Shown piece after piece: positions 2,543-60,290 of a DNA stretch of 64,000 nucleotides (position 1 is the first letter of the stretch; each line of letters starts with the position of its first letter). Both the position numbers and the translations under genes were made by a program. Under the pieces are notes generated by a model. It had not been told where the DNA came from, did not search any database, and saw only the letters and a program-made list of their open reading frames with translations. The stretch is from Octopus sinensis (Eukaryota): NCBI RefSeq assembly GCF_006345805.1, contig NC_043017.1, forward strand, positions 19,344,001-19,408,000, written 5' to 3'.

Positions 2543-2579
2543 CAGTACCGGTTTCAGTCATTTGAGACCTTTTCAACTG
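2543..2579 (-). ncRNA. Minimal type-I hammerhead-ribozyme-like motif (U3-A8 variant)
   Basis: Minus strand reads cag-UUGAAAA-ggtc tcaaat gact-GAAA-ccgg-U-A-ctg: stem I cag/ctg, 4-bp stem II, palindromic ACCGGU in place of helix III. Confidence 0.55.
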
Positions 2580-2740
2580 TAACGATTAAATAATTAAATT
2601 TAGAAAAATTAAAAGAAAAGTTTTTTTTTAAAAGAATATTTGTATAGTGTTCAAATATAAGTGGCATTTTCCTTGTTTCTGCCTTTCTCTGTTTCTCTTA
2701 TTTACACTTGAGAATGATGTGGATGTGGAGGTATATATAT

Positions 2741-2954
2741 ATATAACGGGAAGGTTTATGAAAATAAACAAAAGACGAAGGCAGGTGGAGTACAAACAAA
2801 CAATTGTATTAGTATGGCGCTCAGGAATATAAATAAAACAAGTCTTTTACGTTTCGAGCCTACGCTCTTCAACAGAAAGATACACAGAAAAGAAACACAG
2901 AGAGAAACAAGGAGAGAAAAAAAATGTGTGCAGAAGCTAGCGATTCAACATGGC
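2741..2954 (-). mobile_element. ~210-bp non-autonomous element carrying a hammerhead-like motif
   Basis: 13-bp direct repeat gaggtatatatat at 2728-2740 and 2955-2967 (TSD); second copy in opposite orientation at 60103-60290. Confidence 0.65.
2843..2880 (-). ncRNA. Minimal hammerhead-like motif (A6->U variant)
   Basis: Minus strand: tcttt-CUGUUGA-a-gagc gtag gctc-GAAA-cg-U-A-aaaga; 5-bp stem I, 4-bp stem II, palindromic ACGU. Confidence 0.5.
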
Positions 2955-3722
2955 GAGGTATATATATGTACCTCCACATCATTCTCTAATTAGCTCTCAT
3001 TCTCCCATACTCTCTTGCAACTGCTATCTCCAATCTCCCCACCATCACCATCCCGCTCCATACACATTCCCTGTTCTGTCATCACTCCCTTCTGCTCACC
3101 TTGAACCCTAGGGCTCCATCCTGATCCCTCATCACCACTATTTCTTTTTACCTCTTTTCACCCCTGCCCCAGTTACTTCCATTCCCTCTCTCTTCTGTAA
3201 TCTGTGTCACCATGTAGCTCTTCCACAGCAATAACCCTGTTCTGTTTTGACTCCTTCTCACCTAACTATTCACACACACAAATACACACTAACATGCATG
3301 TATGAATATAAATGTAGATATTATCATCATTAACATTTAATGCTTGTGTTCCATGCTAGCATAGGCTGGACAGTTTGACAGGATCTGACTGGTCCAAAGT
3401 CTGCATTGTGCTCCTATATCTGGCATAGATTCTGCAGTTGGATGCCCTTCCTAATGCCAACAACATTACAAAGTGTATGGGGTGCTTTTTTTCATGGCAC
3501 CAGCACTTGTGAGGTCACTATACAGCGATGAAAGCTAAAATATCCTTTGACTGAGTGGGGTTACAAGTTTTCTATTGGGTTTTAAGTCGAGGGAACAGGC
3601 AGGCCACTTCGTCTTCCGAGGTCTACAGAAGCTTAATTGTTGCAGACTTCTGTAGTTTTCTTTGCTGAGTGCAAGGGCTCATTATTGTGCATGAATATTA
3701 TGGTTGTCTTGAAGGTGAATGG

Positions 3723-4237
3723 TATGGGATGAAGGGGCCAAAACAAAACAGGTTTCTTACTGTAAAGGAGCTACATAGCTACACATTATAAAAGAGAGAG
3801 TGAGAGTGACCAGGATGAAGCTAGAAAGAGTTAAATAGTGGTAAAGAGGTGTTTAGGTGGACCCTCAAGATTTGGAGTGAGGGGGATACAGGAGAACAGG
3901 GAATGTTGATGGGTAGAGGTTGTGGGAGTATATGGGAGAATGAGAGATGTTTAGAAGGGGTTGAGGGGTGAATATAATAAATGATGAACAAGTATAGGGA
4001 AGGTTGGGAAGAGTAGATGACAACTGTAGAGATCAGGCTGGGTTGAAGGGTCGATGCAGTGAGTGGTGGACTGGGGTTTGGGGTGGCCTGTTATACATAC
4101 CAGTTGGAGGTAGGTAGGCAGGGGAGAGTAGGAGATGACTGACCAAAAGTGAAGAGTATCAGAATAGTAATAATGATATGGTGGGAGAGAGAGAGAGAGA
4201 GAGAAATGTGTGTGGTTGGGTAGGTTGGAGGAGTGGG

Positions 4238-4272
<35 letters not shown>

Positions 4273-6150
4273 TACACATATATACACATATACATACACA
4301 CACACACACATTTATAAGATATGATTACACACACACATATATATATACACATGCATACATTTGTGTGTGTGTGTGTGTGTGTGTGTGTTTTTAATAGAAA
4401 TAGAAAAAAACTTGGCACAGTTGTGTATATTTGAAAAGGTGAAGAAGAGTGATTTTTCTGTTGATTATTTCCTACTTAATGAGTTGGTGTTGACAAATTA
4501 TCAGATGTTTAAACAATTTGTAAACACCAAATCAATAAAGTGAAAAATAATTATAAGGAAAATCATTCTTCATTTTTAAAAAAATATCCTCCTCCTCCTC
4601 CTCATCATCATCATCTACTAACATCTAACATCTCTTTTTCCATACTGGCATGGGTTTCATAGTCCAAAACAGGCAGACAAGCCAGAGGGTTTCATTGACT
4701 ACTTCCAGTCTCTGAGGTTTTGTAAAACAACACAGAAACTATGGCCAATTGTCACCATTTCAAATTATTAGCGAGGTCTAATTAAAACTCATGTAAACTA
4801 GAAAATATCAATTTAATTGCTTGATGTACACAAAATGAAGACATACAGTCACAATCATGGAAGAAATTGAAATAAACAGCGTTTAAAAATAATTGGTGAG
4901 CTGGTTGATAAGGGGTATATGAGCCTTAGTTTTTGAAAAGGGTTACAGTAGAATGGCAGGTGGCTTTATGTTATGGGATGAAGTGGCCACAACAAAACAG
5001 GTTTCTTACTGAAAAGGAGCTACATAGCTACACACATTATAAAAGAGAGAGTGAGAGTGACCAGGATGAAGCTAGAAAGAGTTAAATAGTGGTAAAGAGG
5101 TGTTTAGGTGGACCCTCAAGATTTGGAGTGAGAGGGGTACAGGAGAACAGGGAATGTGGATGGGTAGAGGTTGTGGGAGTATATGGGAGAATGAGAGATG
5201 TTTAGAAGGGGTTGAGGGGTGAATATAATAAATGATGAACAAGTGTAGGGAAGGTTGGGAAGAGTAGATGACAACTGTAGAGATCAGGCTGGGTTGAAGG
5301 GTCGATGCAGTGAGTGGTGGACTGGAGGTTTGGGGTGGCTTGTTATACATACCAGTTGGAGGTAGGCAGGCAGGGGAGAGTAGGAGATGACTGACCATGC
5401 AGCCAATAAAAGTGAAGAGTATCAGAATAGTAATAATGATATGGTGGGAGAGAGAGAGAAATGTGTGTGGTTGGGTAGGTTGGAGGAGTGGGATATATCA
5501 ACGTCTGCTTTTCATACTAGCATGGGTTACACACACACACACACACATTTATAAGATATGATTACACATGCACATATATATATACACATGCATACGTTTG
5601 TGTGTGTGTGTTTTTAATAGAAATAGAAAAAACCTTGGCACAGTTGTGTATATTTGAAAAGGTGAAGAAGAGTGATTTTTCTGTTGATTATTTCCTACTT
5701 TAATGACTTGGTGTTGACAAATTATCAGATGTTTAAACAATTTGTAAACACCAAATCAATAAAGTGAAAAATAAGTATAAGGAAAATCATTCTTCATATT
5801 TTAAAAAATATCCTCCTCCTCCTCATCATCTACTAACATCTAACATCCCCTTTTACATACTGGCATGGGTTTCATAGTCCAAAACAGACAGACGAGCCAG
5901 AGGGTTTCATTGACTACTTCCAATCTCTGAGGTTTTGTAAAACAACACAGAAACTATGGCCAATTGTCACCGTTTCAAATTATTAGCGAGGTCTAATTAA
6001 AACTCATGTAAACAAGAAAATATCAATTTAATTGCTTGATGTACACGAAATGAAGACATACAGTCACAATCATGGAAGAAATTGAAATAAACAGCGTTAA
6101 AAAAAAATTGGTGAGCTGGTTGATAAGGGGTATATGTGCCTTAGTTTTAG
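3723..6150. repeat. Tandem segmental duplication, ~1.2-kb unit (~3723-4935 and ~4972-6150)
   Basis: Colinear sequence from tatgggatgaag...acaaaacaggtttcttac to ggggtatatg.gccttagttt, with scattered substitutions and microsatellite length differences. Confidence 0.85.
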
Positions 6151-6900
6151 AAATAAGTTGGAACATGCTAATTTCTGGATCTCCTCTGATGGTATACCAC
6201 GTAATACATCCACAACTGCCTGCCACAATTCATCCTTGCTCCTAAATTGGCATCTATTCTCATAAAATCATTGTTTAGAATACTCCACAAGTTTTCTCTT
6301 GGGTTTTAAGTCGAGGGAACAGGCAGGCCACTTCATCTCCTGAAGTCTACAGAAGCTTAACTGTTGCAGATTTCTGTAGTTTTCTTTGCTGAGTGTGATG
6401 GCTTCATTATTTTGCATGAATATTATGGTTGTCTTGAAGGTGATACTTAGCATTTTTAATTGTGTGAAAAAGGATTTTTACTGGTTATGAAAACTAAAAT
6501 AATAAACAAACTTCAGTTTGAAGGAAATGTAGTGAAAGACATGAATGGATCAGGTTTCACTTACTGTATATTTTACGAGAGTTCAACTACCATAAAGAGG
6601 AAGATGAATCTAGATTCCATAATATGGACACTAGTACTGTTAAAGGACAAAATTCTGCAAGCTGGATTTATTGATTAAATAAACTCTTTGCAGCAATGAT
6701 TGGAATGTCGTGTAAAGAACTTGTCAAAGAAGAGTTAAAGTTGCTCAGAATAACTTGTCGATCATGTGATCTCTGTGAGCAAATTTACTTTGGTGGATGA
6801 TTTACCTGCTTATTTTAATTATTATATGTTTCTTTTTTTATTATTAAAATAATAATAATTTTGGAAGAATACATTTCCAATGCTAAGTATGTTCAAAATA
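6130..6900 (-). pseudogene. Degenerate Tc1-family transposase remnant (boundaries approximate)
   Basis: ORF 6268-6453 contains FMQNNEA...WPACSLDLKP, matching Tc1 FQQDNAP and WPSxSPDLNPIE; a partial copy lies at ~3569-3719. Confidence 0.65.
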
Positions 6901-7046
6901 ATTTTAAAAGAAACCTAAAGTTGTAGATCACATGCCAAAGGAGCACCATGTAATGTATACTTTGTTGCACAATGTAATGTACTTTGTTGCATAACCACTC
7001 CATTTCATCAGGTGATATTCAGCCAACCTTATTACCTCTATTGCAG

Positions 7047-7271
7047 GAGCCTGGTCTCTCTGTCAGTTTCTATTGACTGAAGTGCTTGCCTTGGACTTGG
7101 GATCCTCTTACCATCTTGTCTGTATCACTGTGATCCGATACATTGCTGTTGTTCACCCATTAAAATACCACAACTATGTCAACGAGAAACGGATCCTGGT
7201 CTGCATTGTTTTCATATGGCTCTCCACTCAGACAACAATAATTCTCTTGTATACAATATACATACCAGAAG
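7047..7271 (+). CDS. Class A (rhodopsin-like) GPCR, exon encoding TM3-TM4
   Basis: ttgcag| acceptor, |gtaagt donor, phase 1-1; AWSLCQFLLTEVLALDLGSSYHLVCITVIRYIAVVHPLKY...IVFIWL has the TM3 Cys, a DRY-equivalent IRY, the HPLKY loop and the TM4 Trp. TM1-2 exons were not found in the window. Confidence 0.9.
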
Positions 7272-8313
7272 GTAAGTAAACATCTCTGCTCTTTCTCTTT
7301 CATAACCTGTTTTCCAGGTGGGAATGGTGCTGGTTGTTGTTTAGCCCCAGGTCAACCCAAATCAGGCAGAGCTATGATTTAAGACATTCCAGCCATGTGA
7401 GGGGGATCTTGGACCCTACTGTCTAATGCATCTTTTCCTTATTTTGGATAGTAGGGTGTGATTTGAGGAAAATTTAGCTGCTGTTTTAGCAGATCAAAGA
7501 GACTGTGCTGAAGCTCTGTCATTAGCTCATAATAGTTGATAGTGGTGGTGATAATGATGATAGTGATGATGATTATGACAATAATAGTGATAGTGTTGTT
7601 GTCAGTGGTTTTAAGCCCCAGGTCAGCTTGTCTGAGGAGAACTATGATAAAGGACATTCCATTTGTGACCATCCAATCCTTTTAGTACATCCAGGACAAC
7701 ATTGGAAAAAAATGTGTTCATTTTTCAAATAAAATAAGGTTCCATGTACTGATGTTTGTTACGTAGCTGTATGTTTTGTGTTTAAATCCAACCCAGTTCA
7801 ATTTGCTTTCATCTTCTATATATATATATATATAGAATAAGAAACGACGCGAGGCGTTCAGTCATATAATAACAATTTAATAAATAAAACATATGCATAC
7901 ATACATACATATATGTACATACCCACATCTCTATATATATATATGTGCATTGAGTCGAACCTGGGGCAGCTGATGAAGGGGAATATTCCTTGTATTGTTT
8001 GTCTTGTACTCTGTTTTTTCATTGTAAAAAAAAGTCTGTTTCCTTGTTTGATTTTATGTTTTTATTTATCGTTGTGTTCTACATTTATTTGTGGTGTCCT
8101 GTACTCATATATATATATATATATATCTGCATGTATATATACATGTAGATGTGGGTATGTACATATATGTATGTATGTAAGCATATGTTTTATTTATTAA
8201 ATTATATTATATGTATATGCATGTATTTTGGCAAATAAATTTTTGAAGATGATTAGTTCACAGAATGGATTAATTCAAATTAACATGAAAATATAATTCG
8301 TTTTATTTTTCAG

Positions 8314-8453
8314 GAGAATACGTAGGAGCATGTCGGTATGAGAACATATTCCGGTTTGCACATACCAATATACTGTTTATCATTCAACTATTCTTGCCAG
8401 TGACCATAATGACGTGCTTATACATTCCTCTGATACGAATTGCCCGGAAACAG
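8314..8453 (+). CDS. GPCR exon: ECL2-TM5
   Basis: ttttcag| acceptor, |gtaaat donor; in frame with the previous exon: GEYVGACRYENIFRFAHTNILFIIQLFLPVTIMTCLYIPLIRIARKQ (ECL2 Cys, TM5 Pro and Tyr). Confidence 0.9.
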
Positions 8454-8650
8454 GTAAATATGTCAGCGATGATATTATATGTCAAATCAATGTTGTTGCA
8501 ATAAATCTTGGTGTTTGTTATCTGAAGAGGAATCACAATGGTATCATCATTATTTTAATGTCCATTTTCCCAGGCTTATATATGGAATTTCATCACACAC
8601 AGTATATCAGGACAGTTTATAGGGTCAGCCTCCAGCCTTGAGGTGGTGTA

Positions 8651-8867
8651 CAAGGAGGTGCTGAAAAGTTTCTGGCTTTGGTAAAAAGAAAATACAGGAG
8701 AATCGGTTAATTACAATTTTATTCAACGTATTCCCATCTCAGATTCACACACTTATTGCAGCGGTCCTTCAGTTTTTCTAAGCCCTGTAAAAGAGCTCGG
8801 AAGGCTGAACCTCGAGCCAGGCCTTTTGCAATACCCTTAAAGCCAGAAACTTTTCAGCATCCCTTCA
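8651..8867 (-). mobile_element. mariner-derived MITE
   Basis: TA-flanked TIRs (gctgaaaagtttctggcttt / aaagccagaaacttttcagc); retains mariner C-terminal coding LQGLEKLKDRCNKCVNLRWEYVE*. Confidence 0.75.
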
Positions 8868-8873
8868 TATATA

Positions 8874-9060
8874 CTCTTTTACTTGTTTCAGTCATTTGAC
8901 TGCAACCATGCTGGAGCACCGCCTTTAGTCGAGCAAATCGACCCCGGGACTTATTCTTTGTAAGCCCAGTACTTATTCTATCGGTCTCTTTTGCCGAACT
9001 GCTAAGTGACGGGGACGTAAACACACCAGGATCGGTTGTCAAGCAATGCTAGGGGAACAA

Positions 9061-9093
<33 letters not shown>

Positions 9094-9266
9094 CATATAT
9101 ACGACAGGCTTCTTTCAGTTTCCATCTACCAAATCCACTCACAAGGCATTGGTCGGCCCGGGGCTATAGCAGAAGACACTTGCCCAAGATGCCATGCAGT
9201 GGGACTAAACCCGGAACCATGTGGTTGGTTAGCAAACTACTTACCACACAGCCACTCCTGCGCCTA
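8874..9266 (+). mobile_element. SINE family A, full length
   Basis: ctcttttacttgtttcagtcatttgactgc...accacacagccactcctgcgcc; multiple near-identical copies in the window. Confidence 0.8.
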
Positions 9267-9268
9267 TA

Positions 9269-9474
9269 CGAGGGGGTACTGAAGAAAGATCCTCGTTTTG
9301 GTAAAAGAAAATATAGGAGGATCGGTTAATTTTGTTTTTACTCATTATATTGACACACTTATTGTGACACTCCTTCAGTTTTTCTAAGCCCTGAAAAAAA
9401 AAATTAGGAAGTTTAGACCTCCAATCAGGCCTTTTGTGATAATCTTGTAGTCGGAATTTTTCAGCAACTCCTTG
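9269..9474 (-). mobile_element. mariner-derived MITE, second copy
   Basis: Homologous to 8651-8867; TA-flanked; FFQGLEKLKECHNKCVN remnant. Confidence 0.7.
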
Positions 9475-9656
9475 TATACGGGTGGTGAGGGAGGTAGAGT
9501 GTTTCCTGGAACTATTCGAGAAAACACTCAATCCATGCCAGCATGGAAAACAGATGTTAAATGATGATGGTGATTAGTGAAAGTGCTTGGAAGTACCACC
9601 AATGTAAACCCTGGTGGAGTTGGTCTGAGGGGTGACAGTACATTTATACACAATCT

Positions 9657-9687
<31 letters not shown>

Positions 9688-10577
9688 GGAAGTAGATCAC
9701 TCTGTCTATTTCCTGTTGCTGTGAATTACTCATTATAATCTTTCACAATGAGGTCTCCCTTTGAAATCATTTCTCTGATGTAATTTCCACGTGCAAGCAT
9801 AAGTTTTACATAACCTTCTCTCATTACCTAAAATCTTTATGATTCAATTGTAAAAACTGGCTGTCCACTAATTTTTAGTTTTAATTCTTGCCCTTAACAA
9901 CTAAAATAGCTATTCATGGTTGAGTTTCATTTTATGTAAGCCTCATCATGGCACACCAGTGATGAGGCTTTGTAGTTGTAGGCTGGCGATTCAGTTTGTC
10001 CCCAGTCTGATTCAGGCATGTGATGTTGATAAGCCACAAAAATGGTGAAGGCGGCAAGATAGCAGAAACGTTAGCACGCCGGGCAAATGCTTGTAAATAT
10101 ACTCAACCCTACTTGTGTATATCTGCCTTTACACATCTGTGTTGTGTGTTTATATCTATCTATCTATCTATATATATATATATATATAATACAAGAAGAT
10201 TTTATCACAAATCACACAGTTGTTTCTGTGCATTAATAAAAGCTGTTAGTTGCTGAGTTTCCCATATTATACATATTATTATATATGATCAGCTATAGCT
10301 TTGAAATACACATTATAAGGAAATTACCTACATGATATTACACACACACATTGATGTTTATTGATTGATGTAAATATCAATGAGAAAAATCCGACAAACC
10401 TGTGAATTCAAACAAAAATACCTTGTGATGCTTGTTCCGCCCAGATTGTACAGATGCTTCTTTGAGTGGACAGTGATTGGTTCATTATGACCAATAACCA
10501 ATGCCCAAGGTACCATGCAGTGAAACTGAACATGAAACCATGTGGTTGTAAATCTTATATTTTATTTATTTTGATAG

Positions 10578-10756
10578 GCCAAAGTGATTGCTATTCAGGA
10601 ATGTTCTGTGACTCGGTCAGCAATAACTAGCCAAGAGAGAAAGTCAACTTATATGGTTACATCGCTTCTTGGTTGCTTTGCCATCTTTTGGACCCCTACA
10701 GTCATTTATTTTTATGCCAGTATTGCTTTAAAAGGAAACATTAACCATTATATCAG
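10578..10756 (+). CDS. GPCR exon: ICL3-TM6-ECL3
   Basis: ttgatag| acceptor, |gtaagt donor, phase 0-2: AKVIAIQECSVTRSAITSQERKSTYMVTSLLGCFAIFWTPTVIYFYASIALKGNINHYI (FxxxWxP motif). Confidence 0.9.
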
Positions 10757-11066: not shown

Positions 11067-11087
11067 AATTTCTAATATAGACCCAAA

Positions 11088-23934: not shown

Positions 23935-24640
23935 TCTACGACAGTACTTGAACCCTGATGCAGGTGTTCAACACATTATGTGTCTACTACCTACACCGTT
24001 ACCCACCAGACCACTGGGTCCCCCCAATATATGTAGTTGGAAATGAGATACTTAAATCTATTTTATCAATAAGAAATAAAAAAAATAGATTTAAATATGT
24101 CATTTTCGACTACATCTATTGGGGGTACCCAGTGGTCTGGTGGGTAAAGGTGTAGGTATGAAGGCACATGGTGTGCTGGACACCTGTATCAGGGTTCAAG
24201 TACTGTCTGGAGTCTACAAAAGATTAATTTTTTTTTTTTAAATTTGTGTGTGTGTATGTGTGTTATTTAAAAAAAAAAAAAAAGAAGTCTCTCTCTCCTC
24301 TGGGCTCCCGGACGGTACTTGAACCCTGATACAGGTGTTCAACACATCATGTGTCTACTACCTACACCTTTACCCACCAGACCACCGGGTCCCCCCAATA
24401 TATGTAGTTAAAAATGAGATACTTAAATCTATTTTATCAATTATAGAAAAATAGATTTAAATATGTCATTTTCGACTACTTCTGTTGGGGGGACCTGGTG
24501 GTCTGGTGGGTAAAGGTGTAGGTAGTAGACACATGATGTGTTGAACACCTGTATCAGGGTTCAAGTACTGTCCAGGAGCCCAGAGAAGAGAGACTTTTTT
24601 ATTTTTTTTTTTAAATAACACACATACACACACACAAATT
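23935..24640. ncRNA. Cluster of tRNA-like Pol III-type units in alternating orientation (-,+,-,+)
   Basis: Units at ~23935-24025(-), 24121-24213(+), 24301-24396(-), 24487-24581(+): A-box-like tggtctggtgg, B-box-like ggttcaagtac, downstream T-run, conserved upstream tttaaata. Confidence 0.45.
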
Positions 24641-37255: not shown

Positions 37256-38408
37256 CAAAATGTATTTCAACATAAATATGGTAACAAAAGAGTTAAAATT
37301 ATCTAAATTAAGACTTTCCATCAAAAATTCAAATTAATTTGTTTCAAACACTAGTTTAATAATGACTCATTTTTTTTTTTCAAAATTAATTGAAACAAAT
37401 CAGTGTATTTTAACAGAAATGTGGTAATAAAAGTGTTTAAAGATTCCATGGAGTATTTGTATGTAAAGTATGAAGTTCATTAACAAACTTGAGTTAGTTA
37501 GTTAATTAATTAGAAAAATGAACATTAATTAATTAAAAATAAACTTTGTTTAGTTATTTTCAACAATAAATTTTGTCATTATACATTGTTATGTTCAGAC
37601 TGTTGTTCTAATGGCGTTGGTTGTTATAGTCACAATGTTTCGGTTGTTATAGTCACAATATTTCAGCTGTTGTATTCTCCAGTCACCTTCAGGTACTTGT
37701 TTATTAGGTAAGATTCTCAGAGTTTTAAACCAATTCCTTTATTAAATTTCACCCAGGGTACATTGTCCTCATTTCATTATCTAAACTATAGATGTTCTCT
37801 AGTTATTTTTCTGCTTGTGATGCTCTGTGGTCATTTGGCTTGAACTGGTGTGTGTGTGTATTGTGTGATCAACCAGGCTATCAGATGTTATACATCGCTG
37901 GTTACAATGTGCTTTGCATCGTTTTAGCTTTTGAATGATGCTACCCAATTGGATAGGCAAGCAGGCCAACATTGCCCTTGATTGGAGGGCTAATCCGTTG
38001 CAGGGTTACCCATCTGTAGGTGCGTGGACTGGAACAATGTGAAATGAAGTGCTTTGCTCAAGTATACAACATGAAGACGGTCTGGGAACCAAAACCACAG
38101 TGGTGAGATTGAAAGTGCAACATGCCTAACCATTAACTAGGTCCTGTACCTTCACACATAAATGTATGTGTTGTATTATTATTATTATTGTCATAATCCT
38201 TTCTAGTATAGGCACAAGGCCTGGATTTTGTGAGGGGAACAGTCAATCACATCAACCCCAGTACTCAACTGGTACTTGATTTATTGACCCTGAAAAGGAT
38301 GAAGGGCAAAGATGACCTCAGTGGAATCTGAACTCAAAACATAGCAGCAGATGAAATACTGCTAAGCATTTTGCCCGGTGTGCTAACGATTCTGCCAGCT
38401 TACCACTT

Positions 38409-38451: not shown

Positions 38452-38661
38452 GAAGAAGAAGAAGAAGAACAACAACAACATGTATATACACATACACATA
38501 GCCATACATACTTGCACATCCTGGTTCAAGAGGAATGAGCAGAAGGCATTACAAATAAGAGAATATTCTTGGTATGAAATGAAAAAATCTACCTTGGTTG
38601 GGTCTAGTAAAGATAATAAAAGAATGGCTTAAGATTCTGAAAATTGGTACTAAATATGACA

Positions 38662-38707
38662 GGCACCTGAAGATGGCTGGAAAGTACAACAGCTGAAATA
38701 GTGTGAC
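38662..38707 (+). ncRNA. Degenerate hammerhead-like motif (Penelope-type end)
   Basis: ggcac-CUGAAGA-t-ggctg...cagct-GAAA-tagt-gtgac; cleavage triplet decayed; a related inverted copy lies at ~37640-37697. Confidence 0.35.
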
Positions 38708-38883
38708 TATATAACAAAGAAGAAGATGAGGACACCACTCCGAATAAATCAACGTACAACAAAGACAATAATTTCACATACCTGAGAAATCTGGAATGGA
38801 ATAAAACTTATGTTAATTTATGTTAATTAATTCATAAAGGAAAGAAATCAACAAAGACACAATTATGAACAAAAATAGAAATC

Positions 38884-45125: not shown

Positions 45126-45340
45126 ATATATATATGTATACATATGAAACTCATAAGAGTACAGTTATTATATGCTCTAATATTTGTTTGCAATTCCTAA
45201 AATACTTCGCTGAAAGTGAGAGATCTGCTTCAATGAACCGAATATTATTAATGAGTTATATAATTAAGTAGTATATAATTTTAATTTTGCACATTTTCAG
45301 CATTTTTAAAAATCAAATATCTGGAATATATAAGTAATAT

Positions 45341-49054: not shown

Positions 49055-49177
49055 CTTTATTTAAAGCAGCAGAAAATTCAACAAAACCTGTTACTCTGAG
49101 TTTCACGTTCCCGTTCGTCAGGAACGTGAAACTCAGAGTAACAGGTTTTGTTGAATTTTCTGCTGCTTTAAATAAAG
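49055..49177. repeat. Perfect 57-bp inverted repeat with a 9-nt loop
   Basis: 49055-49111 is the reverse complement of 49121-49177. Confidence 0.92.
49087..49121 (-). ncRNA. Hammerhead core inside the palindrome
   Basis: Minus strand: CUGACGA-acg ggaa cgt-GAAA-ctcagag-U-A-acagg; canonical core, but the 5' strand of stem I is replaced by the foldback. Confidence 0.5.
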
Positions 49178-49248
49178 CATATTACTCTACCACTGGTATT
49201 TGAGTACTCTTTTTTCCACCTTGTTTCATATTTATGTGTTTACTCCGG

Positions 49249-49309: not shown

Positions 49310-49358
49310 CTTGCCTGAAGATTCTGTGCAGCCACCAAGTGAAACTCAGAGTAGCAAG
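49310..49358 (+). ncRNA. Type-I hammerhead-like motif
   Basis: cttgc-CUGAAGA-[imperfect stem II]-GAAA-ctcagag-U-A-gcaag; 5-bp stem I plus distal agtca/tgact pairing. Confidence 0.55.
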
Positions 49359-50016: not shown

Positions 50017-50051
<35 letters not shown>

Positions 50052-52812
50052 CTATATATATATATATATATATTATTATATAAATAGATATATATAATAT
50101 ATAATAATATATATATAATATATATAATAATATATAATATATATATATATATATATAATATATAAAATTATATATATATATAATATATAAAATTATATAT
50201 ATTATATATATAATATATAAAATTATATATATATATATATAATATATATGTATATATATACACACACATTTATTTATTTATATAAATTAAAACAACAAAT
50301 TTTAATCCAACTATGAAAGTATTTTCATTCGCAGAAAACAATATAATGAACTTTACACTGTACAGTTAAATAATATTGCAGACAACTGTACAATCTTTAT
50401 TATTATAATTAATATCGTTATTATTATAGACAAATGTGTGGTTAATATTTCTTTTATAGTATTGATCAGTCATTCAATTTGAAAAAGTTAATCATTTATC
50501 ACCTAAATTCAACCAAACAGGAAGACACTATACATATTATATACATACACATATACATTTACTGATATATATATACATATACACACACACATTATATATA
50601 TATATAATGAGTATTGAAAGTAGTTTATCAGTGTTTTGTCCAATGGCAACGGCAGAGATGAAAATATGAAACTTCAGTTCATTCCCAATCTTTTTTTTTT
50701 CCTTCTGCTACTAAGATGGCTTGGCTAAAAACGCAAACCCGAACAATATACGAAAAACATCCTGACAATGCAATTTTCATTTTAACAAACGTAAGGGGTG
50801 TACAGATGGGAGTTTAAAAACCATTCTTGTTTGTGTCTTTTTCAGACTCGGTTTTAAGACTTTCTAAAAAAAAAAAAAAAAAAAATCATAGTAAAAAATG
50901 AAAATTTCCTGTTTTATGTCATTTATTTTATGTGTTTAATGGTGTAGAATTGGAACCCAAAATAAAGAAACAAGCATAATGCTAAACCTCTTCCTGCCAT
51001 ACAGTCCCAAATGGTCCTACACCAACATGAAAGTATTGTGCTCTACTTCTACATAACAAAGTACACAAACTGATCTTTTCCTTTTGCTATTTCACATGAT
51101 CTTGCAGAAAATCTATTAATGGCCTCTTTTAAACCAAAAGCTAATCTTAGCTAATTCCACAGCAAATATAACGTACTGTGCCATAAGCCCATAGCTCTTT
51201 GATGGGTTTCTTTTAGAGGTGCCACCATGACATATGGTGTGTCTTGAGCATATTTTTTGGACCTGGTTGAGTCTCTATCACTTCAGAACAGACCATAGTC
51301 CGTTTCTTCCAGGTGAGAACGAGAAAAAGAAAGTAAGAGAGAGAATAACTGACACCTGTACAGGTACTTTAATCATTGACTCTGGAAGGCTGATTCAAAC
51401 TTCACCTCAACAGAGGTTAGAAACCAGATCGTAAAGACCTGGAAGGAACACTGCATAGCATTTTGTTCAACTCTCAACATTTCTGCCAGCTTGCCATCTC
51501 GGTAATTTGTTCTGATTTTGGTCCAAGAGCCAAATTTCGAGGGGAGGGGAAAGTTGATTACTTTGACTCCCTACTTGATTAGCACTTTACTTTATTGACC
51601 CTGAAAGGCAAAGTTGACCTCAGTGGCATTTGAACTCAGAATGTAAAGAGCAGCAAAAAAATACTGCTAAGCATTTTGTCCAACATGCTAATAAACCTGT
51701 CAGCTCACCACCATAAAAAACAACAACAACATACACACACAAACGTGTAAGTGTGATTAATGTAGTTGCCATCTGAAAGTTGATTAAGGTCAATGATAAT
51801 CATTTAATACCTAAACACAATGGTTTACCAAACCACATGATCCACCCCCACCCCCATATCATTCACAAAACCTTCCAGGCAAGTTCCATGTGCATCATTT
51901 AACCCTTTCACATTAAAGCTCAATGTTGGCCCTCTTTGTTCAAAGAAGTAAACCTAGATGGGTTTCCTTGAGCCAGAGACAGTGCTAACTTCAAGCTTCG
52001 GTTGACTAACTCCTTAATGCCATCTCGTTAGGCAAAATTCTAATTATATCCTGCTTGAAGAAGTACCATTGCAAAGAAAAGATCTGAACAAGAAATAATA
52101 ATAATAATAATTGTTTCAAATTTTGGCACAAGGCCAGAAATTTTAAAAGGTGTGGGGGTAGTCAGTCAAGTGCATCGACTCCAATATTTGATCAGTACTT
52201 TGTTTTATCGACCCTGAGAGGACGTAAGGCAAAGTTGACCTCGGCAGTATTTGAGCTTAGAACATGAATTGCTGGAAGAAATACAGCAAAGCATTTTCTC
52301 CAACGGTTCTAACGATTCGGCCAGCTCATCACCCCATTAATAATAATCATAATAATAATAATAATAATAAAAATTTCACTTACAGACATCTGTGTTGTAT
52401 TCTGAAAGTGAAGAGTCTGAAAACTATACAACTACTACACAAGAATGGTTTCTACAGTAATCTAACGGATGATCTAGTCTAAAGTTAAGATGGACTGCAT
52501 ATCTTCCATTAAACTTAGTCTATATCCTCATGTATACCCCCAACGTTTGCAATCTGTTTTTAGCCAGGCAAATGACAGCAGTTGGAAAGCAGTGGTCAAT
52601 GAACATTCCTGTGGGAAAATAACATGTGTATGTCTCATGGCTAAAATTTTATGGATATATATATATATATAAATAAAATATATATCTGGATGCATGTATG
52701 TATGTATATATATATATATATATAATATATAATGGCTGCCCCCTCGTTATCGAGTATGGCCAATATATATATATATATTATATATATATATATACATACA
52801 TACATACACATA

Positions 52813-52855
<43 letters not shown>

Positions 52856-54219
52856 TCTGTATGCATGTATGTATATATATATATATATATTGGCCATACT
52901 CGATAATGAGGGGGCAGCCATTATATATATATATATACATACATACATACACATATATATGTATATATTATGACTTTTGTTTTGCATTGTGTGTAAGAAG
53001 GAACATAAAAGTGCATCAATACAAATTTATGTTGGAAGTCTTGTCTAAAATATGTTAATTTATGTGGTCTCAGATATCACACACAAATTAACATACATAA
53101 ACTATATATATATATACATATATACGTGTGTAAATGTGTGTGTGTGTATATATATATATGTGTGTGTGCGTGAGTGTATGTATATGTGTGTGTATATATA
53201 TATATAAATATATATGTATGTATATATATATGTATGTATATTTTAAGATAAGTCAAGGAATGAGATTGACTCCCTTGCTGAAAGTCTGTGAGAGAAAGAA
53301 ATTTGTTTTTTCTTTTTTTTTTGGTTTTTTTCCAAAGAGGCAGGTGGGTGTCTTCTTTAGAAATTATTAAATACATTACAAGGAAAAAATTACAACGTTA
53401 GGATGAATCATTAACTATAGAACAAGAGAATGTACAAAATTCTACAGAGACAGGTTGAATTGTCATTGTGCAATTTGTGTATATATGTTATAGTTTGGTT
53501 GTTGAGTTTGTCTTGCAAAATTTTTTTTCTTCTTTTTCTTACCAACTGACTTAGATCACATAGTTATTATTATAACATTTTTTTTTAAGAATCTAATTAA
53601 GTATTTATTAATTAATTGTTATTTTTTTTCATCCAGAATATCTCTTCAGCTTTTATTTTTATTATTGAAGTTCAGCATAAATATATGTCCGTTGATTTTA
53701 GTTTGATTTTGATGAAAAAGTATATATATTATTTATTCTTCTTTGAAATGATATATATTTCTTTTAAGTATTTCCTTTTTTTTCTGTTGGAAGTCATACA
53801 CTCGCAATTAAATATTTGTGTCTATTGGTAGGTCTGTTAATTGATGAATGAATGAATTAATTAATTATAATTATTAATATTTTTTTGAATCTTAAATAGT
53901 TTCAATTTGGACACAAACACTCACATGTAAGATAGCAGCAGCATCTCTGCCAAATATTAAGATCAATACCAATATCAAGTGTTGCTTTGCTCTTTACGAC
54001 GCCGTTATTTGAGGACAAGCTCCAAGGAAATTGTTTATATTTTTACACAGAAGAAAATGAACAAAAAACAAAAACCAAACGTTTTTGTTACAACAACAGA
54101 AAGGCCACCAAGTGGGTTCTTGTTTTCCATTTCAGCTGGATCCTTCATTTATAAGCGCAGATAGTATGTGTTTCACATATATACATACATGCATATATAA
54201 ATATATATATATATGTGTA

Positions 54220-54258
<39 letters not shown>

Positions 54259-54524
54259 ACATATATATACTTACATATATATGTATGTATATATGTATGT
54301 AAATGTATATATACATGTGGATATATATATATATATATAGATGTATATGTTTATATACATGTGGATATATATATATGTTTATTTTCTGTCAGCAATGAGA
54401 TAATGAATCAGTGTTTAATTAAAAAAAAGTGGATGGAGAAGTCAAAGCCTCATTTAATAATTAATGTTTTTAAGAAACTGCAGTTAATTAACTAGCAATT
54501 ACACCATCACTAATTATAAAACTG

Positions 54525-55170
54525 CATGATTATCACCTTTAGGGTTTGGTTGGTTAAGTACCATTGAGCTTCACAATCATCACCTGTTGATTTGGTTTGA
54601 TTAGTTAAATATCACCTGGGCTGAACGAGCCCCACCAGACGGTTTTAATATCACTTGAGTTTCCAAGATCTTCCCCCAGAAGGTTTAGGTTGAACTGAGT
54701 TACATGATCTGCACCAGATAATTAAATATCACTTGAGTTTCCTAATCTTCACCAGATGATTTATATTCCACTGAGCTGGCATGGTCAGCACCAGAAAGTT
54801 GAGTTTGAACTGAGCTGCATGATCAGCACCAGATAGTTGAGTTTGAACTGAGCTGCATGATCAGCACCAGATAGTTAAATATCACTTGAGCTTCGATCTT
54901 CCCCAGTTGTTTAGATTCAACTGAGCTTGCATGATCCACACCAGATGATTAAATATCACTTGAACTTCCATATCCTTCATATGATGATTTAGATTCAACT
55001 GAGCTGCACAAATCTGCATCAAATGATTAAATATCACTTGAGCTTCCATTATCTTTCTTTACCCCAGATGGTTTATATTCCACTGAGCTTGTGTGATCCT
55101 TCCTCACATGGCTAAATATCACTTGAGCTTCACAATCCGCACCCAATGGTTTAGATTCCATTGAACTTTA
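54525..55170. repeat. Diverged minisatellite, ~33-40-bp units of two alternating types
   Basis: caccagat.rttaaatatcacttgagctt and caccagatggtttagattcaactgagctgcatgatc units; one exact period of 38 bp (54789/54827). Confidence 0.8.
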
Positions 55171-56374
55171 AAGAAAAAAACAAACCAAAAACCAGAAATC
55201 ATCAATCATCATTTATACTCATCTGTTGAGTTTCATGATCATCTCTTTCTCTCTCTCTCTGCTTGTCTGAATTTATTTGATCAGTTGAGCTTCACCTGTC
55301 TCACCTGTTAGTTGATCCACCATTTATCTGAGCTTCAACAACAGACTGCAATTTGCTTTTTGCTTCTTCAGAAAAATTATTTGACTTTATTATTTGAATT
55401 TTATCACTCGAACGAGATGAAAATAGTTTTGTTTTTTTTTGTTCCTAGCTGTGCAAAACCTCAGGAAATGTTGAAAGTTAGACTTGCATTTCTGTTCACT
55501 ATAATTAAATATGATAGTGATGGTATTGGTTAATGGTGGTCGTGGGTGGAGTGAGGGGGTCAGTATTTGTTGCTCTTTGTTATACAACATCATATGAGTG
55601 GGAAATTCACAGCAGTGGTTAATAAATAATATGACCAAAAATGTCTGTCTGTTCGTCTGTTGGTTGTCTGAGACCAAAATATCATCGTCTTTATGTTTTT
55701 TTTTAAATATAATATGATGATGTTACTGAAATCTGAGCTTTTTCTTTCCTCGCCTCCATATATATAAAAGTAGAGCAATAAAAAGAGAGAGAGAGAGAGA
55801 GAGTATAAGCAAAAGAAATGAGAAAGTCCATTTCAAAGAAACCAGTTGGTCATTCCATTGCATTCTACAGAGAAAAGTCTCAAAGTTCAGTAATAGAGAC
55901 TTCTACTGCAGTGAATATTATACACCGACCATCATCAATGTTTTTATAATTATTATTATCATTATTATTCATATCATTATTTCTCGTAGATGCTTCTTGA
56001 GTTTTAGATGTGTATTTTTCAACAAAGGAAGGAGCAAAAATGAACAAGTTTCAATGATCCAACGTAAAGTTTGTGTATATATATATGCATGCCAAAGTAG
56101 GACATCAACAATGAATTCTCTTTCATTGTATCGTTTGTCTTTTAATTAACTAATTAATTAATTGTTTTTAATTTAAGTTTAAATTATTTTGTTTGGCTTT
56201 TTTTTTTAAATACCACTCACAGTTTGTTTGATTTATAGCTCTGGCATTGCATATTTTTTAAGAACGAATGAGAATATATATGTATATACATATATATATA
56301 TATACATATATATGTATATATGTATGTGTGTGTTTGTGTATGTTTGTGTATGTGTATTTTCATAGTCAAAGTAT

Positions 56375-56527
56375 TCATAACATCGATTCGACACTGCAGT
56401 TGGAATATTCTGGGGCATTGTTACTATAATTATCCTGGTTTGATGTGTCGTTTTCATTGTTTAAAATGGTGGGAATCTTTGACGATGTTGGACTTGTCGT
56501 TTCTTGAAACTTTGTCAATTTGTTTGT
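56375..56527 (-). CDS. Probable terminal coding exon of an unidentified gene (C-terminus ...SVESML*)
   Basis: Strong minus-strand acceptor (T-rich...ttttcag); 50 open codons TNKLTKFQETTSPTSSKIPTILNNENDTSNQDNYSNNAPEYSNCSVESML*. The frame is assumed (longest), and no upstream exon was identified. Confidence 0.55.
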   Translation of the reverse strand, partial: TNKLTKFQETTSPTSSKIPTILNNENDTSNQDNYSNNAPEYSNCSVESML

Positions 56528-59007
56528 CTGAAAAACAAAGCAAAAAAAAAAAAAAATGAATAAAAGTTGAAAAAAACAAAGCTCTAAAATGGAATAATTT
56601 TAATTTAACAGCTGTGGATTGATAATTTTATTTTTATAAATTTAGTTTTATTTCATCTTTTTATTTCTTTATCTTCAGAAATAGAAATATGGACATGTAA
56701 GAAATATGACATGATGTTTATAATATTGCTTTCAAATCTTGGCACAAGGCCAGCAATTTCAGAGAAAGTGGGTAAATCAATTTCATTGATCCTATTGCTT
56801 AACTGGCACTTGTGTCCCTCACAAAAAGGATGGAAGGCAAAGTCAACCTTGGTGGAATTTGAATTTAGAACATAAAGATGAACAAAATGCTGCTGAATGT
56901 GTTGCCCATTTTGCTAATGATTCTGCCAGCTCACTGCCTTAGGTGGTTCGTAATATTGCTTTCAAATTTTGACACAAGGCCAGCAATTTCAAGGGAGAGA
57001 GTCAAGTTGATTAAATCAACTCCAATGCACAACTGGTACTTATTTTATTGACCCCTAAATGGATGAACGACAAAGTCAACCTTGGTGGAATATAAAGTCA
57101 GGATGTAAAGACAAACAACTGCCCGTGCGGTGCCATGTAAAAGCACACAGCACATTCTGCAAAGTGGTTGGCATATTAGGAAGGGCATCCAGCCATAGAA
57201 ACCATGCCAAATCAGACTGGAATCTGCTGGTCAAACTGTCCAACCCATACCATTATGGAAAACAGACGTTTAATCATGATGATGATGATGAACAAAATAT
57301 CACTATACATTTTGTCCAGCATGCTAACAATTCTGTTAGTTTACTGTCTTAGGTTATTAAATCCTATATGGATAAGGATTATTGCTGCTAATCCACACAG
57401 AACGATTCAAAAGTCCCTTTAGCAATTAAATAAATCATTTATAAAATATATATTTTGCTGCAGTTTGTTTCTATCTATTTTTTTTATAATATCCCTATTA
57501 TTTCACCGTGAATATCTTTACTCACCTCATAAGTTGAGGATGCACCCCTCATCACCCCTATTTTGATATCTTCCCAGCACAACCCTGGCCATTCAACCCC
57601 TAAGTCTTAGTCCTTCCTGTTTCTAATGGACCACTGGGTGATGAGCTGGCTCCGCTGAGTGCAATCTGCTGCAGCCATTTTTGCATCAATCCAGGTGAAT
57701 TGCATTTCCCATGTCCTCTTGGACAGTTTTTGGGTGATTTTCATTTTCCCCCCGACTCCAAATAGACCACAATTGGGTCCCCGAGTTTCTTTCTCAGGGT
57801 TGAGTGTAGGGCTAGTAACCTCACTTCATATAAGAAACATCTGTTACAGATTCACAATAACTGTCACTCAGACCCAAGCTCCTATAATGTTTGGAGCCAT
57901 GTAGCTTGTCTACAGCAAGAAATCTGCTCCACGCCCCCCCCTTCTCTTAGACTTTAACTCCTCATCTCCCTGCATAAAGCTGCCTCTCTCTTTACTGCAG
58001 TCTTGTTCAGTTGAATGAGTTCAGTCTTGCAGGCTGCAAGGTAACCTCACTAGTGCTGGTGCCACACAAAAACACACACAGTACACTCTAATGTGGTTGG
58101 CATTAGAAAGGGCATCCAGCTGTAGAAACTAAACCTAAGAAAACACTAGAGTACAATGCAGTCTTATATCAGATCCAGTCAAACCGTGCAACCCATGCCA
58201 GCATGGAATATGGATGTTAAAAGATGATGATTTGTTATGTATATACTGTTTTGTAGTCATTATTAGTGATAGAAGCAGTTTTAGTTCAAAATAGCAATCT
58301 GTGCATCATACTTAAAGCAGATACATCATTGAAAGCGTATTAAATTGCTGTATTCATCTCAAGAAAGTATCTCTTGTAGATGTATAGAGTGAAAAACAAA
58401 AAACAAGAATATATCACCAGCAACAGATTTTGTCTTAACATGCATTTGTCAATGGATATTTGCTACTGACAAAGCCCAAAGAAGCATAAATACACAAGTA
58501 GCATCATCATGACTGCAACTGGATGGATTTTTTTTGGCTATTAATATATTTTCGTGTTTTTAATACATGTCAGTAAAAGATGCTTTCCTGAGACAAATAC
58601 CACAGCTTCCAGGTTTTCAACCATGTATCTGCTTTAAGCATGATACACAGATTGCTACAGCTTTATATATTTTAGAAATTGTCCTTATCAAAAGAATAAG
58701 AGAATATTCATTGTTTGAAAAGTGGTACAATAAAATGGTAATCCTGTGCAGTTGCCATGAGTGGCTTGGTCAGCTGGCAGAATAAATAAGAGGACAGTAG
58801 ACCAGCTATCTTGGAATCCCTGAGCCATGGCAGTCAGCTGGAAATCTGGAGTCAGGGGATGGTTAACCCTTTAGCATTTAAACCACCAATATTACACCCA
58901 AATAGTTTACCTATGTTACGGTCAAACTGGCCAGATACAGCCTCTCACACCTACCCTACAATGCTATACTATAAATAAGCAATCACATTGAAATCTCTCA
59001 AAGTGGC

Positions 59008-59128
59008 ACATCTTTCATTGGAATTGAACCGCATATCTGTTGTATACCAGACAACCATGTCTGATTACGAAATGAGATCCTGTACCAATTTTTTCCTGTC
59101 TTAAAGATACTTGTTAACGACATACACA
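59008..59128. repeat. ~120-bp dispersed repeat (second copy ~60897-61017)
   Basis: tctttcattggaattgaaccgcatatctgttgtataccagacaaccatgtctgattac is shared; B-box-like ggttcaattcc on minus. Confidence 0.7.
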
Positions 59129-59398
59129 TGCATGGTTAATCCAAAACAATGTGCCTAAAGAAAAAAATTACATTTGACAGAGTAATCTGAATGCTAAATG
59201 GTTGTTAATGGATGCCATGAAGAGAGGAAGAAGAAAAACTGTTCATTATGGACCCCCATTCATTATATGAGGATGAAATTAATGGCAAAAGGCCTCCGGA
59301 ATCATTGTGCAGATGATATAGTAACGAAGCAGGATTTAAAAGACTAAAACACTCATACATTGTCTTTGATGGGTGAGGCCATCACACATATATTTTTA

Positions 59399-59619
59399 CA
59401 GTAATTCCTCGCCATATTGCAGTTCACCTACCGTGGTTTATTATTTAAGGTTATGTCGATTCCTTTGTGGTGTTGTTTTGCATTTATCATAAAATAAATA
59501 CATACAAATTATAAAAATAAATAAAAAAATATACAGTACTGCTTCTACTTCGTATATTTTCACCTCTCGCGAAGGGAGGGGGTTGGAACGTAACGCCTGC
59601 GATAGTCAAGGGATTACTG
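59399..59619. mobile_element. Tigger/pogo-type MITE
   Basis: TIRs cagtaattcctcg / caagggattactg; TA on the left. Confidence 0.6.
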
Positions 59620-60102
59620 TGTATGTGTGTGTGTTTTTATGTATATATACTCTGTACTCTCTTTTAGAGAGTATCATCATCATCATCATCATCGTTTAAC
59701 GTCCGCTTTCCATGCTAGCATGGGTTAGACGATTTGACTGAGGACTGGCGAACCAGATGGCTGCACCAAGCTCCAATCTGATTTGGCAGAGTTTCTACAG
59801 TTGGATGCTCTTCCTAATGCCAACCACTCCGAGAGTGTGTGGGTGCTTTTACGTGCCAGTCAGGTGGTACTGGCAACAGCCACGCTCAAATGGTGTTTTT
59901 TTACGTGCCACCTGAACAGGAGCTAGTCCAGCGGCACTGGCAATGACCTCGCTTGAATGTTTTTTTTCACGTGCCACCGGCACAAGTGCCAGTAAGGCGA
60001 TGCTAGTAATATATATATATATATATGTATATAATGGATAATAAAACGAATGTTTTACACCTGGTAGTCTTTCATTTGCCATATATATATATATATATAT
60101 AT

Positions 60103-60290
60103 AACGCCATGTTGAATCGCTAGCTCCTGCACACATTGTTTTCTCTCCTTGTTTCTTTCTGTTGAAGAGCGTAGGCTCGAAACATAAAAGACTTGTTTTA
60201 TTTCTATTCCCGAGCGCCATACTAATACAATTGTTTGTTTGTACTCCACCTGCCTTTGTCTTTTGTTTATTTTCGTAAACCTTCCCGTTA
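60103..60290 (+). mobile_element. Second copy of the hammerhead-bearing short element, embedded in (TA)n
   Basis: Reverse complement of 2745-2954; motif tcttt-CUGUUGA-a-gagcgtaggctc-GAAA-ca-U-A-aaaga at 60154-60191. Confidence 0.65.

Follow-up and report, generated by a model that had tools for sequence, protein, structure and literature searches.

Short hammerhead-like motifs are scattered through a 64,000-nt stretch of Octopus sinensis DNA (contig NC_043017.1, positions 19,344,001 to 19,408,000; hereafter the window), many of them close to TA repeats. This raises the question of what the motifs belong to and how they came to lie there. A preliminary description, made from the letters alone, had read them as a radiation of non-autonomous ribozyme retroelements that target microsatellites. 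We conclude instead, with a probability of about 90%, that they are minimal type-I hammerheads carried in the 3' pseudo-LTRs (pLTRs) of four coding families of Penelope-like elements (PLEs) and of one related, older family, and that the window copies are 5'-truncated insertions, likely made by the element's own GIY-YIG endonuclease and RT. They extend a published class by further families, and PLE insertion accounts for their adjacency to TA repeats.

Hammerhead motifs in the window

The type-I hammerhead layout is found at all five of the principal coordinates noted previously, and each motif lies in a dispersed repeat family (A to E; loci elsewhere in the genome are numbered L). The features are as follows.

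2491..2710, minus strand: 5'-truncated 3' end of family B, the second of two apparently Neptune-type PLEs, abutting (TA)n; 87% over 230 nt to L369
2543..2579, minus strand: intact minimal hammerhead of family B, with a U3-A8 core pair and a 4-nt palindromic helix III; cleavage predicted after 2546
2747..2956, minus strand: 5'-truncated 3' end (pLTR) of family A, an apparently Neptune-type PLE, abutting (TA)n; over 209 nt, identity with the pLTRs of the full-length element L151 is 92% (upstream) and 91% (downstream)
2843..2880, minus strand: intact minimal hammerhead of family A, with a 5-bp stem I, U6 core, bulged A, 4-bp stem II and 2-nt palindromic helix III; cleavage predicted after 2848
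37636..37697, minus strand: second decayed copy of family D, inverted with respect to that at 38660
38660..38735, plus strand: decayed hammerhead-bearing end of family D, an old, presumably Penelope/Poseidon-type PLE lineage, without TA tract; 79% over 73 nt to L093
45145..45164, plus strand: half-motif, single copy, its membership of a family unsupported
49055..49121, minus strand: short-ended arm of an inverted pair of family C (Hydra-type PLE); hammerhead core kept through the stem I 3' strand, stem I 5' strand gone
49123..49248, plus strand: tail-bearing arm of the same pair, beginning within stem II, with (TA)n at its end; 97% identity with the pLTRs of the full-length element L195
49303..49445, plus strand: older element end of family E, akin to C and likely Hydra-type; hammerhead at 49310-49358 with damaged stem II
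60105..60287, plus strand: second truncated 3' end of family A, with TA tracts on either side; hammerhead at 60154-60191 with G16.2 changed to A

Only two of the five principal motifs, 2843-2880(-) and 2543-2579(-), are intact and satisfy our complete hammerhead descriptor. The G16.2 to A change at 60154-60191 breaks a pair of the 2-nt helix III and recurs in 8 of 99 family A copies; at 49087-49121 the inversion junction removed the stem I 5' strand, and at 49310-49358 stem II is mutated. Where at least three unrelated families had been proposed we count five, two of which (C and E) are related. As to the decayed or half copies, 38662-38707 and 37640-37697 proved to be decayed members of family D, while the stretch at 45145-45330 was rejected as a family member, since a genome search returned only itself (1 candidate) and no copy was seen among the loci compared.

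Rfam returned no hammerhead family among the 150 of 206 window matches listed, nor any hammerhead in seven further loci or in six family D loci. Minimal motifs escape the Rfam models, and these blanks are therefore not evidence against hammerheads.

Coding elements that carry the motifs

The expectation that the motifs would connect to Penelope-type RT and GIY-YIG ends was borne out for families A to D, in copies that were mostly best-scoring search matches rather than a random draw. Among the top 30 endonuclease loci of family A, one of them the query's own, 27 are followed on the same strand, after about 300-790 nt, by the motif-bearing end, and in 6 of 10 loci with a long ORF the motif flanks the frame on both sides, 4.3-4.5 kb apart. 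The B end lies downstream on the same strand in all 12 RT loci of that family (again including the query's own locus), and L369 contains a 784-aa frame with RT and GIY-YIG. In the frames of both families Pfam places RVT_1 above and GIY-YIG below the cut-off.

The two proteins are only 27% identical; both have a DKG motif and a CX2-5CxxC linker preceding GIY-YIG (DKG, YIDD and a CX4CxxC linker in family A). We regard A and B as probable Neptune-type elements; because Nematis shares the CX2-5CxxC linker (PMC8557442), this clade name depends on the motifs together with the TA bias.

In family C, direct copies of the motif stand on both sides of the ORF in 10 of 10 fetched loci, which had been selected for a pLTR and an ORF start, the motif-ORF-motif unit measuring about 3.4 kb; in 28 of 30 loci the pLTR end lies about 1.05 kb downstream of the endonuclease. 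The ORF of about 705 aa matches the definition of Hydra in its RWK, DKT, YRDD, CxxC and CxH motifs and has no CCHH pair inside GIY-YIG. Pfam matched no family in this protein; the GIY-YIG domain was identified by its motifs, and a homologue search yielded 1080 relatives, nearly all unnamed, among which GIY-YIG-type labels occur. The CxCX5C linker was present in L192, L198 and L199 and in 1 of the 28 readable top endonuclease loci, 26 of which have Phe in place of the second Cys (CxF form), as did the query itself. At the 3' end of C and over its endonuclease, 30 of 30 bins are covered by assembled contigs of four runs, two of them RNA only by guess; such contigs reveal neither ends nor expression.

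Family E is an older relative of C and likely Hydra-type; the two have an identical helix III, and at 8 of 19 E loci outside the window about 50 nt of the tail is 72-79% identical to that of C. When the A and C proteins were compared by tblastn with 20 E loci, no partner ORF of E appeared and only a fragment at L144/L145 was obtained; it resembles Hydra-1_Obim by eye, and other repeats intervene between it and E.

Upstream of the D end, broken Penelope/Poseidon-like frames with an RT end and GIY-YIG were found in L093, L364 and L368; no D frame was intact among the loci examined, and a Pfam search of the L364 piece produced no relevant match. Motif likeness places family D tentatively in the Penelope/Poseidon clade, whose elements join RT to GIY-YIG with no CxxC linker. 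Among the loci examined for B, D or E, none showed an element flanked on both sides by pLTRs in direct orientation.

Element ends and a model of insertion

Most of the motifs had been said to adjoin (TA)n. This is true of the element 3' ends of A, B and C rather than of the motif, whose predicted cleavage site lies 37-103 nt upstream of the junction. A (TA)n tract directly follows the element 3' end in 68 of 70 copies of A and 25 of 27 of B, but in 0 of 18 of D, against a background of 3.2%; at the C tail end the count is 45 of 76 (same background), and at least 21 of the remainder continue into the ORF. Insertion into TA repeats thus holds for A, B and C and not for D. In A and B, 3-4 of the TA units at this point are part of the element itself.

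The short copies all stop at fixed 3' positions, whereas their 5' ends are ragged, some of the latter reaching the 3' UTR and endonuclease in A and B; this identifies the short copies as truncated insertions. An opposite-strand partner is present at 19 of 23 C loci, compared with 2 of 29 for A, 5 of 19 for B, 8 of 17 for E and 8 of 22 for D, and in such inverted partners the tail is on one side.

The likely mechanism begins with a nick in the target made by the GIY-YIG endonuclease of the element. RT would then start a short way downstream of the hammerhead, always at the same position, and halt early, leaving a 5'-truncated copy; in A and B, the TA units of the junction could pair briefly with the nicked (TA)n target. 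With the hammerhead only 37-103 nt from the RT start, nearly every truncated copy should retain it, and the outcome, if published PLE work is a guide, would look like a family of short ribozyme elements. The ribozyme itself probably cleaves weakly, either as a dimer through the palindromic helix III or aided by the element protein. Its role may lie in trimming tandem or read-through transcripts, and it is probably dispensable for insertion.

A tRNA-like head in family D

The 3' UTR of family D contains, about 140-260 nt upstream of the core, a tRNA-like head in which A- and B-box-like motifs stand, by eye, at tRNA spacing. It is possible, if somewhat short of even odds, that in this family only a tRNA-like segment captured in a PLE 3' UTR became a Pol III promoter, from which a tRNA-headed hammerhead SINE of about 300-400 nt would be transcribed alone and copied by the PLE protein. 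Consistent with this, the head query found 2063 first-look candidates in the genome, and 29 of 39 head-bearing copies start within 6 nt of tRNA +1, although 21 of the 39 came from a head-biased search. The others comprise 4 truncated within the head, 2 that are longer by 21-22 nt and 4 that reach further towards the endonuclease, three of these last having come from an endonuclease-side search.

However, ARAGORN detected no tRNA in 10 loci, Rfam did not recognise the head as a tRNA, its predicted fold is not a cloverleaf, and neither D copy of the window matches it. Moreover, +1 coincides with part of a small palindrome, and in many copies an inverted junction falls at this point; a site at which RT stalls or folds back would explain the same clustering.

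We put forward, as tentatively, a joint reading in which a Penelope/Poseidon-type element gained a tRNA-derived Pol III promoter, giving rise to a PLE-mobilised hammerhead SINE alongside its parent, while a U6 core accompanied the spread of the most abundant Neptune-type family. A PLE-driven SINE is described in no title or abstract of the literature searched, most subscription journals being outside its coverage, and the tRNA-headed subfamily would be of greater importance if it truly is one.

Cores of the hammerheads and their fitness for cleavage

The copies of the families carry a C3-G8 (or U3-A8) pair, GAAA, UH, stems I and II and a palindromic helix III. U3-A8 is common to 38 of 40 copies of family B, and position 6 separates family A from the rest: U was found there in 89 of 99 copies, full-length ones included, and in all 12 pLTRs of six double-ended elements, while families B, C, D and E have A at this position. 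C4 occurs in part of families C and F, and stem II of C is very short. Both A6C and U4C are reported to reduce hammerhead activity (PMC3088659); U6 in A and C4 in part of C and F are, by analogy, changes of the same activity-lowering kind, and several families may not cleave at all. Free-energy folding of monomers and dimers gave no clean double-hammerhead structures, and we claim no support from it, as a predicted fold does not demonstrate catalysis. A literature search on the A6U change produced nothing beyond a paper on twister. The dimeric PLE hammerhead variants of Lunse et al. (2017), summarised in PMC6765202, may already cover U6 or C4 cores.

The motifs could therefore be relics which no longer cleave and are kept as a structure for protein binding or RT positioning, or simply as passengers. 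In addition to the prevalence of U6, the predicted monomer fold of A, in which U4-U7 pairs with the GAAAC strand, is an inactive shape. Furthermore, in the only PLE tested in vitro, hammerhead mutants left insertion unaffected and none of the reads stopped at the cleavage site (PMC11167929). We nevertheless hold loss of cleavage across the set to be less likely than not, since many unrelated families have kept helix III self-complementary, together with GAAA, the UH triplet and the C3-G8 or U3-A8 pair, which suggests past or present selection for cleavage. Relic motifs would in any case be compatible with our main explanation, which concerns the identity of the elements.

Retrozymes and chance matches

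The short copies might alternatively be independent, non-autonomous retrozymes, in which the hammerhead cuts out unit-length RNAs that are circularised and re-inserted in trans. Such an origin is suggested by L071, where a 246-bp head-to-tail tandem of the C end has the motif in each unit; the unit matches the size of animal non-LTR retrozymes (PMC7229834), and a preprint (10.64898/2026.07.22.740005) argues that such repeats derive from pLTRs. The complete unit was nevertheless found at that locus only (4 of 43 matches, all there, the others running on into the ORF), and we reject it as a general retrozyme family. The window has no head-to-tail monomers of 150-450 nt with a hammerhead each and no ORF, as define non-LTR retrozymes, one such tandem (L071) existing elsewhere; its copies are single, truncated or inverted and never tandem. 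Together with the ragged 5' ends of A and B, this makes an origin as retrozymes improbable.

The truncated-insertion reading thus replaces the proposed non-autonomous radiation, as four of the five families are 3' ends of elements coding for RT and GIY-YIG. A non-autonomous offshoot is possible for the tRNA-headed D copies and for the C tandem at L071.

Tallies of base pairs among the matches to our descriptor are circular, the inner palindrome alone excepted: among inserts of at least 4 nt, helix III was fully self-complementary in 7 of 9 motif clusters, the descriptor having required only the outer pair. Chance matches in AT-rich, repeat-rich DNA, to which the single-copy half-motif at 45145 and some 0.2 descriptor hits per Mb of shuffled sequence could be ascribed, are virtually dismissed as an explanation and refuted for families A-E by the fixed position of the motifs beside RT and endonuclease frames, by 14 matches in a systematic 1-Mb genome sample against 1, 0, 0, 0 and 0 in five shuffles (parity with shuffled sequence having been named beforehand among the grounds for refutation), and by 2 window matches against 0 in each of twenty local dinucleotide shuffles, with a descriptor composed after the window motifs had been inspected.

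Relation to published elements

Published work already covers the minimal hammerheads of PLEs, their scattering as single copies and the targeting of TA (PMC4209133, PMC8557442), as well as an octopus Hydra family with a hammerhead and a (TA)n preference (PMC8557442). The preliminary description was right to recognise minimal type-I hammerheads with palindromic helix III, tied to PLEs and divided among many families; what may be uncatalogued is at most individual families and not the kind. The min-HHRs described in PLE pLTRs by Cervera and de la Pena in 2014 (PMC4209133) have the same type-I layout with a short helix I and a palindromic or absent helix III, a bulged base after A9 as in A and D, and a U3-A8 variant as in B. 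They likewise form many heterogeneous families per genome, mostly as single copies from truncated PLEs, with inverted pairs. Their consensus keeps CUGANGA; the departures here are U6 in A, C4 in part of C and F, and the very short stem II of C. Mollusc min-HHRs are listed in the supplement of that paper, in one searched file of which Octopus was not found.

The modest value of the present set is that one genome offers a panel of young elements from different PLE clades, with canonical, U3-A8, C4 and U6 cores, mapped 3' ends and some long open frames, in which the role of PLE hammerheads is directly testable. If true, the spread of the most abundant Neptune-type family with U6 would be a natural test of whether cleavage matters for the spread of PLEs.

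Families A and B share with the Neptune-clade EN+ PLEs (Arkhipova 2006, as summarised in PMC8557442) a DKG RT, a C-terminal GIY-YIG with the CX2-5CxxC linker, the (TA)n bias and a hammerhead in the pLTRs. Family C agrees with the Hydra clade, which includes Hydra-1_Obim of Octopus bimaculoides (PMC8557442), in its ~705-aa ORF, RWK, DKT, CxxC and CxH motifs, pLTR hammerhead, (TA)n insertion and odd-length helix III palindrome, and its stem I and helix III are, by eye, nearly those of the published Hydra consensus. It is nevertheless a different family from Hydra-1_Obim, as the supplement of PMC8557442 contains neither the protein nor the hammerhead words of C and the published motif differs; in addition, the second Cys of CxCX5C appears to be lost in the young C subfamily, and the C unit of about 3.4 kb compares with under 3 kb.

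With regard to possible offshoots, L071 resembles the tandems of animal non-LTR retrozymes (PMC7229834), unlike the window copies. The tRNA-headed D copies are akin, in joining a promoter to a hammerhead, to the Schistosoma alpha SINE-like hammerhead repeats mentioned in PMC6765202, although the D head sits within a PLE 3' UTR.

The Poseidon element PAc of Anolis (Frangieh et al. 2024, PMC11167929) also has AT-rich targets, a hammerhead near the RT start and two fixed 3' ends separated by a tail, an arrangement which is clear in C and which in A and B takes the form of an optional extension of about 30 nt. The C tail, at about 66 nt, is longer than the 30-40 nt described for PAc, and whereas RT in PAc starts without target homology, A and B bear short TA runs at the junction.

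Hammerhead motifs in the window

The type-I hammerhead layout was present at all five main positions for which the preliminary description had proposed it, although three of these motifs (60154, 49087 and 49310) are damaged and cannot be called intact. The two decayed copies described at 38662 and 37640 proved to be real members of a repeat family, whereas a genome search with the half-motif at 45145 returned only itself, with no second copy, and this element was dropped. The window motifs and the repeat families (A-E) that carry them are:

2543: family B
2843: family A
49087 and 49310: families C and E; the first without the stem I 5′ strand, lost at an inversion junction, the second with a mutated stem II
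60154: family A, helix III pair broken
38662 and 37640: family D, decayed
45145: half-motif, single copy

A descriptor which accepts C3-G8 or U3-A8 plus one core deviation, composed after the window motifs were known, gave two passes in the window versus none in each of 20 shuffles; across 100 regularly spaced stretches of 10 kb it gave 14, versus 1, 0, 0, 0 and 0 in five shuffles. Rough extrapolation from the latter sample gives ~38,000 matches in the 2.72 Gb assembly. For the giant squid, PMC6962438 reports 235 hammerhead matches. The motifs are real and are explained as parts of Penelope-like elements (PLEs), forming new families within a known kind.

Among all fetched loci (L-numbers; 1.98 Mb, a non-random sample), 116 descriptor matches fell into 16 clusters, 11 with C3-G8 and five with U3-A8. 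Pair tallies over descriptor matches are circular, except for the inner palindrome of helix III: the descriptor required the outer pair only, and of the nine clusters whose helix III carries an insert of at least 4 nt, seven were fully self-complementary. Further hammerhead families lie outside the window (L256:7047-7230, L316, L319, L320, L260, L069, L013), including family F, related to A, with a C4 core and TA-ended, and family G, with a U3-A8 core and not TA-ended, as well as several singletons with a longer palindromic helix III.

Families A and B

Across thirty loci, family A copies have a common 3′ end and ragged 5′ ends, and the longest reach, on their upstream side, a GIY-YIG domain that has a CX4CxxC linker. 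A query with this domain gave 17,746 first-look candidates, and in 27 of the 30 top endonuclease loci the motif end followed on the same strand, ~300-790 nt downstream. Six of ten long-frame loci had the motif end on both sides, 4.3-4.5 kb apart, enclosing a reverse transcriptase (RT) plus endonuclease frame. Judged by its sequence motifs, family A is a Neptune-type PLE. Its core carries U6 in 89/99 copies (a count that takes in a few copies of family F) and in all 12 pseudo-LTRs (pLTRs) of six double-ended elements; A6C and U4C changes are reported to lower hammerhead activity (PMC3088659). Tandem repeats coding for C2H2 zinc fingers are found directly upstream of one family A insertion (L009:1-300).

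Family B copies are 97-99% alike, and their end lies downstream of RT in 12/12 RT loci. Upstream of the end, L049 and L159 contain RT and endonuclease, and they also show a tailed copy in the opposite orientation; the 784-aa frame of L369 has 27% identity to family A. The U3-A8 core, found in 38/40 copies, is a variant already described (PMC4209133). Despite the 27% protein identity, the optional tails of A (L152:2165-2200) and B (L369 end) terminate in a similar 8-nt pyrimidine-rich word, possibly a common RT start signal. The rearranged 5′ part of L369 also contains a 173-aa frame (568-1086, minus strand), which may be a piece of an upstream ORF1.

Families C and E

Family C ends run on into an ORF of ~705 aa, flanked by direct pLTR copies ~3.4 kb apart in 10/10 loci chosen for pLTR and ORF start, and the motif lies downstream in 28/30 endonuclease loci. 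The RWK, DKT, CxxC and CxH motifs of the protein match the Hydra definition, and few copies keep an intact CxCX5C linker (1/28 endonuclease loci, plus three fetched loci). The PMC8557442 supplement lists an octopus Hydra family with a hammerhead and (TA)n preference which differs from family C; another Hydra consensus printed there is almost identical to family C in stem I and helix III. In the window, family C takes its typical form, an inverted pair in which one arm bears a tail; an inverted partner was found in 19/23 loci. Family E has the helix III of family C and some of its tail, and no ORF belonging to E was found. At L071:1370-2113, three head-to-tail 246-bp units of family C pLTR and ORF start, with an inverted fourth, form a retrozyme-like local tandem.

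Family D and its tRNA-like head

Family D is old and has a canonical core (CUGAUGA or CUGAAGA in 49/59 copies). Upstream of its end, L093, L364 and L368 contain broken RT-end and GIY-YIG frames that resemble Penelope/Poseidon. A tRNA-like segment, in which A- and B-box-like motifs can be read, separates endonuclease from hammerhead; neither ARAGORN nor Rfam recognised it, and no match to it was seen in the two window copies. Examples occur at L039:1946-2030(-), L344-L363, L198 and L368, in the order head, (AAT)n tract, hammerhead, within the 3′ UTR. Head-bearing copies begin at most 6 nt from head +1 in 29/39 cases (21/39 from a head-biased search). This clustering could reflect Pol III transcription from the head, or RT fold-back at a palindrome which overlaps the same site. 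The tRNA-headed copies may represent a PLE-mobilised SINE, and this subfamily and the U6 core of family A are the leads worth keeping.

TA tracts and a possible mechanism

A TA run of at least 6 nt, found at 3.2% of random positions, followed the 3′ junction in 68/70 family A and 25/27 family B copies. Three to four TA units belong to the element itself in both families; runs of at least 10 nt were still present in 53/70 and 18/27. In family C the run followed 43/88 short ends, with at least 38 others continuing into the tail, and 45/76 tail ends, with at least 21 others continuing into the ORF. Family D had none (0/18), and in a random megabase TA followed 4/4 family A and 0/4 family D ends. 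Neptune, Naiad and Hydra have a published TA bias (PMC8557442).

These families were observed to be linked to RT/endonuclease frames and to have fixed 3′ ends, truncated and inverted copies, tails and TA tracts. On the model of PMC11167929, the endonuclease would nick AT-rich DNA and RT would begin just downstream of the hammerhead, at either of two internal sites; even short products would then retain the motif. Weak cleavage, dimeric or protein-assisted, might trim tandem transcripts; cleavage was dispensable for insertion in the system of PMC11167929. For Octopus vulgaris, 336 recently active Penelope-like insertions are reported, with ribozymes unmentioned in the passages of PMC13282606 consulted.

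Other repeats in the window

The window has ~35% GC and abundant TA microsatellites. Sequence flanking the nested A and B insertions (2706-2735) recurs inverted, over ~22 nt, at 2966-2990, as if the B insertion had copied its own target backwards and A had then landed in the TA tract. Other repeats are:

3781-4895 and 5032-6110: direct local duplication, ~1.2 kb, 88-98% identity
11087-19888: ~52-copy satellite array, 171-bp unit, 93% matches, higher-order period 341 bp
23987-24159 and 24326-24557: two short related elements with long terminal inverted repeats, MITE-like hairpins
54676-55057: degenerate 38-39-bp tandem repeat, periods 78 and 115 bp, possibly coding
90-301, 2220-2390 and 9057-9268: abundant tRNA-like SINE copies, often adjoined by microsatellites
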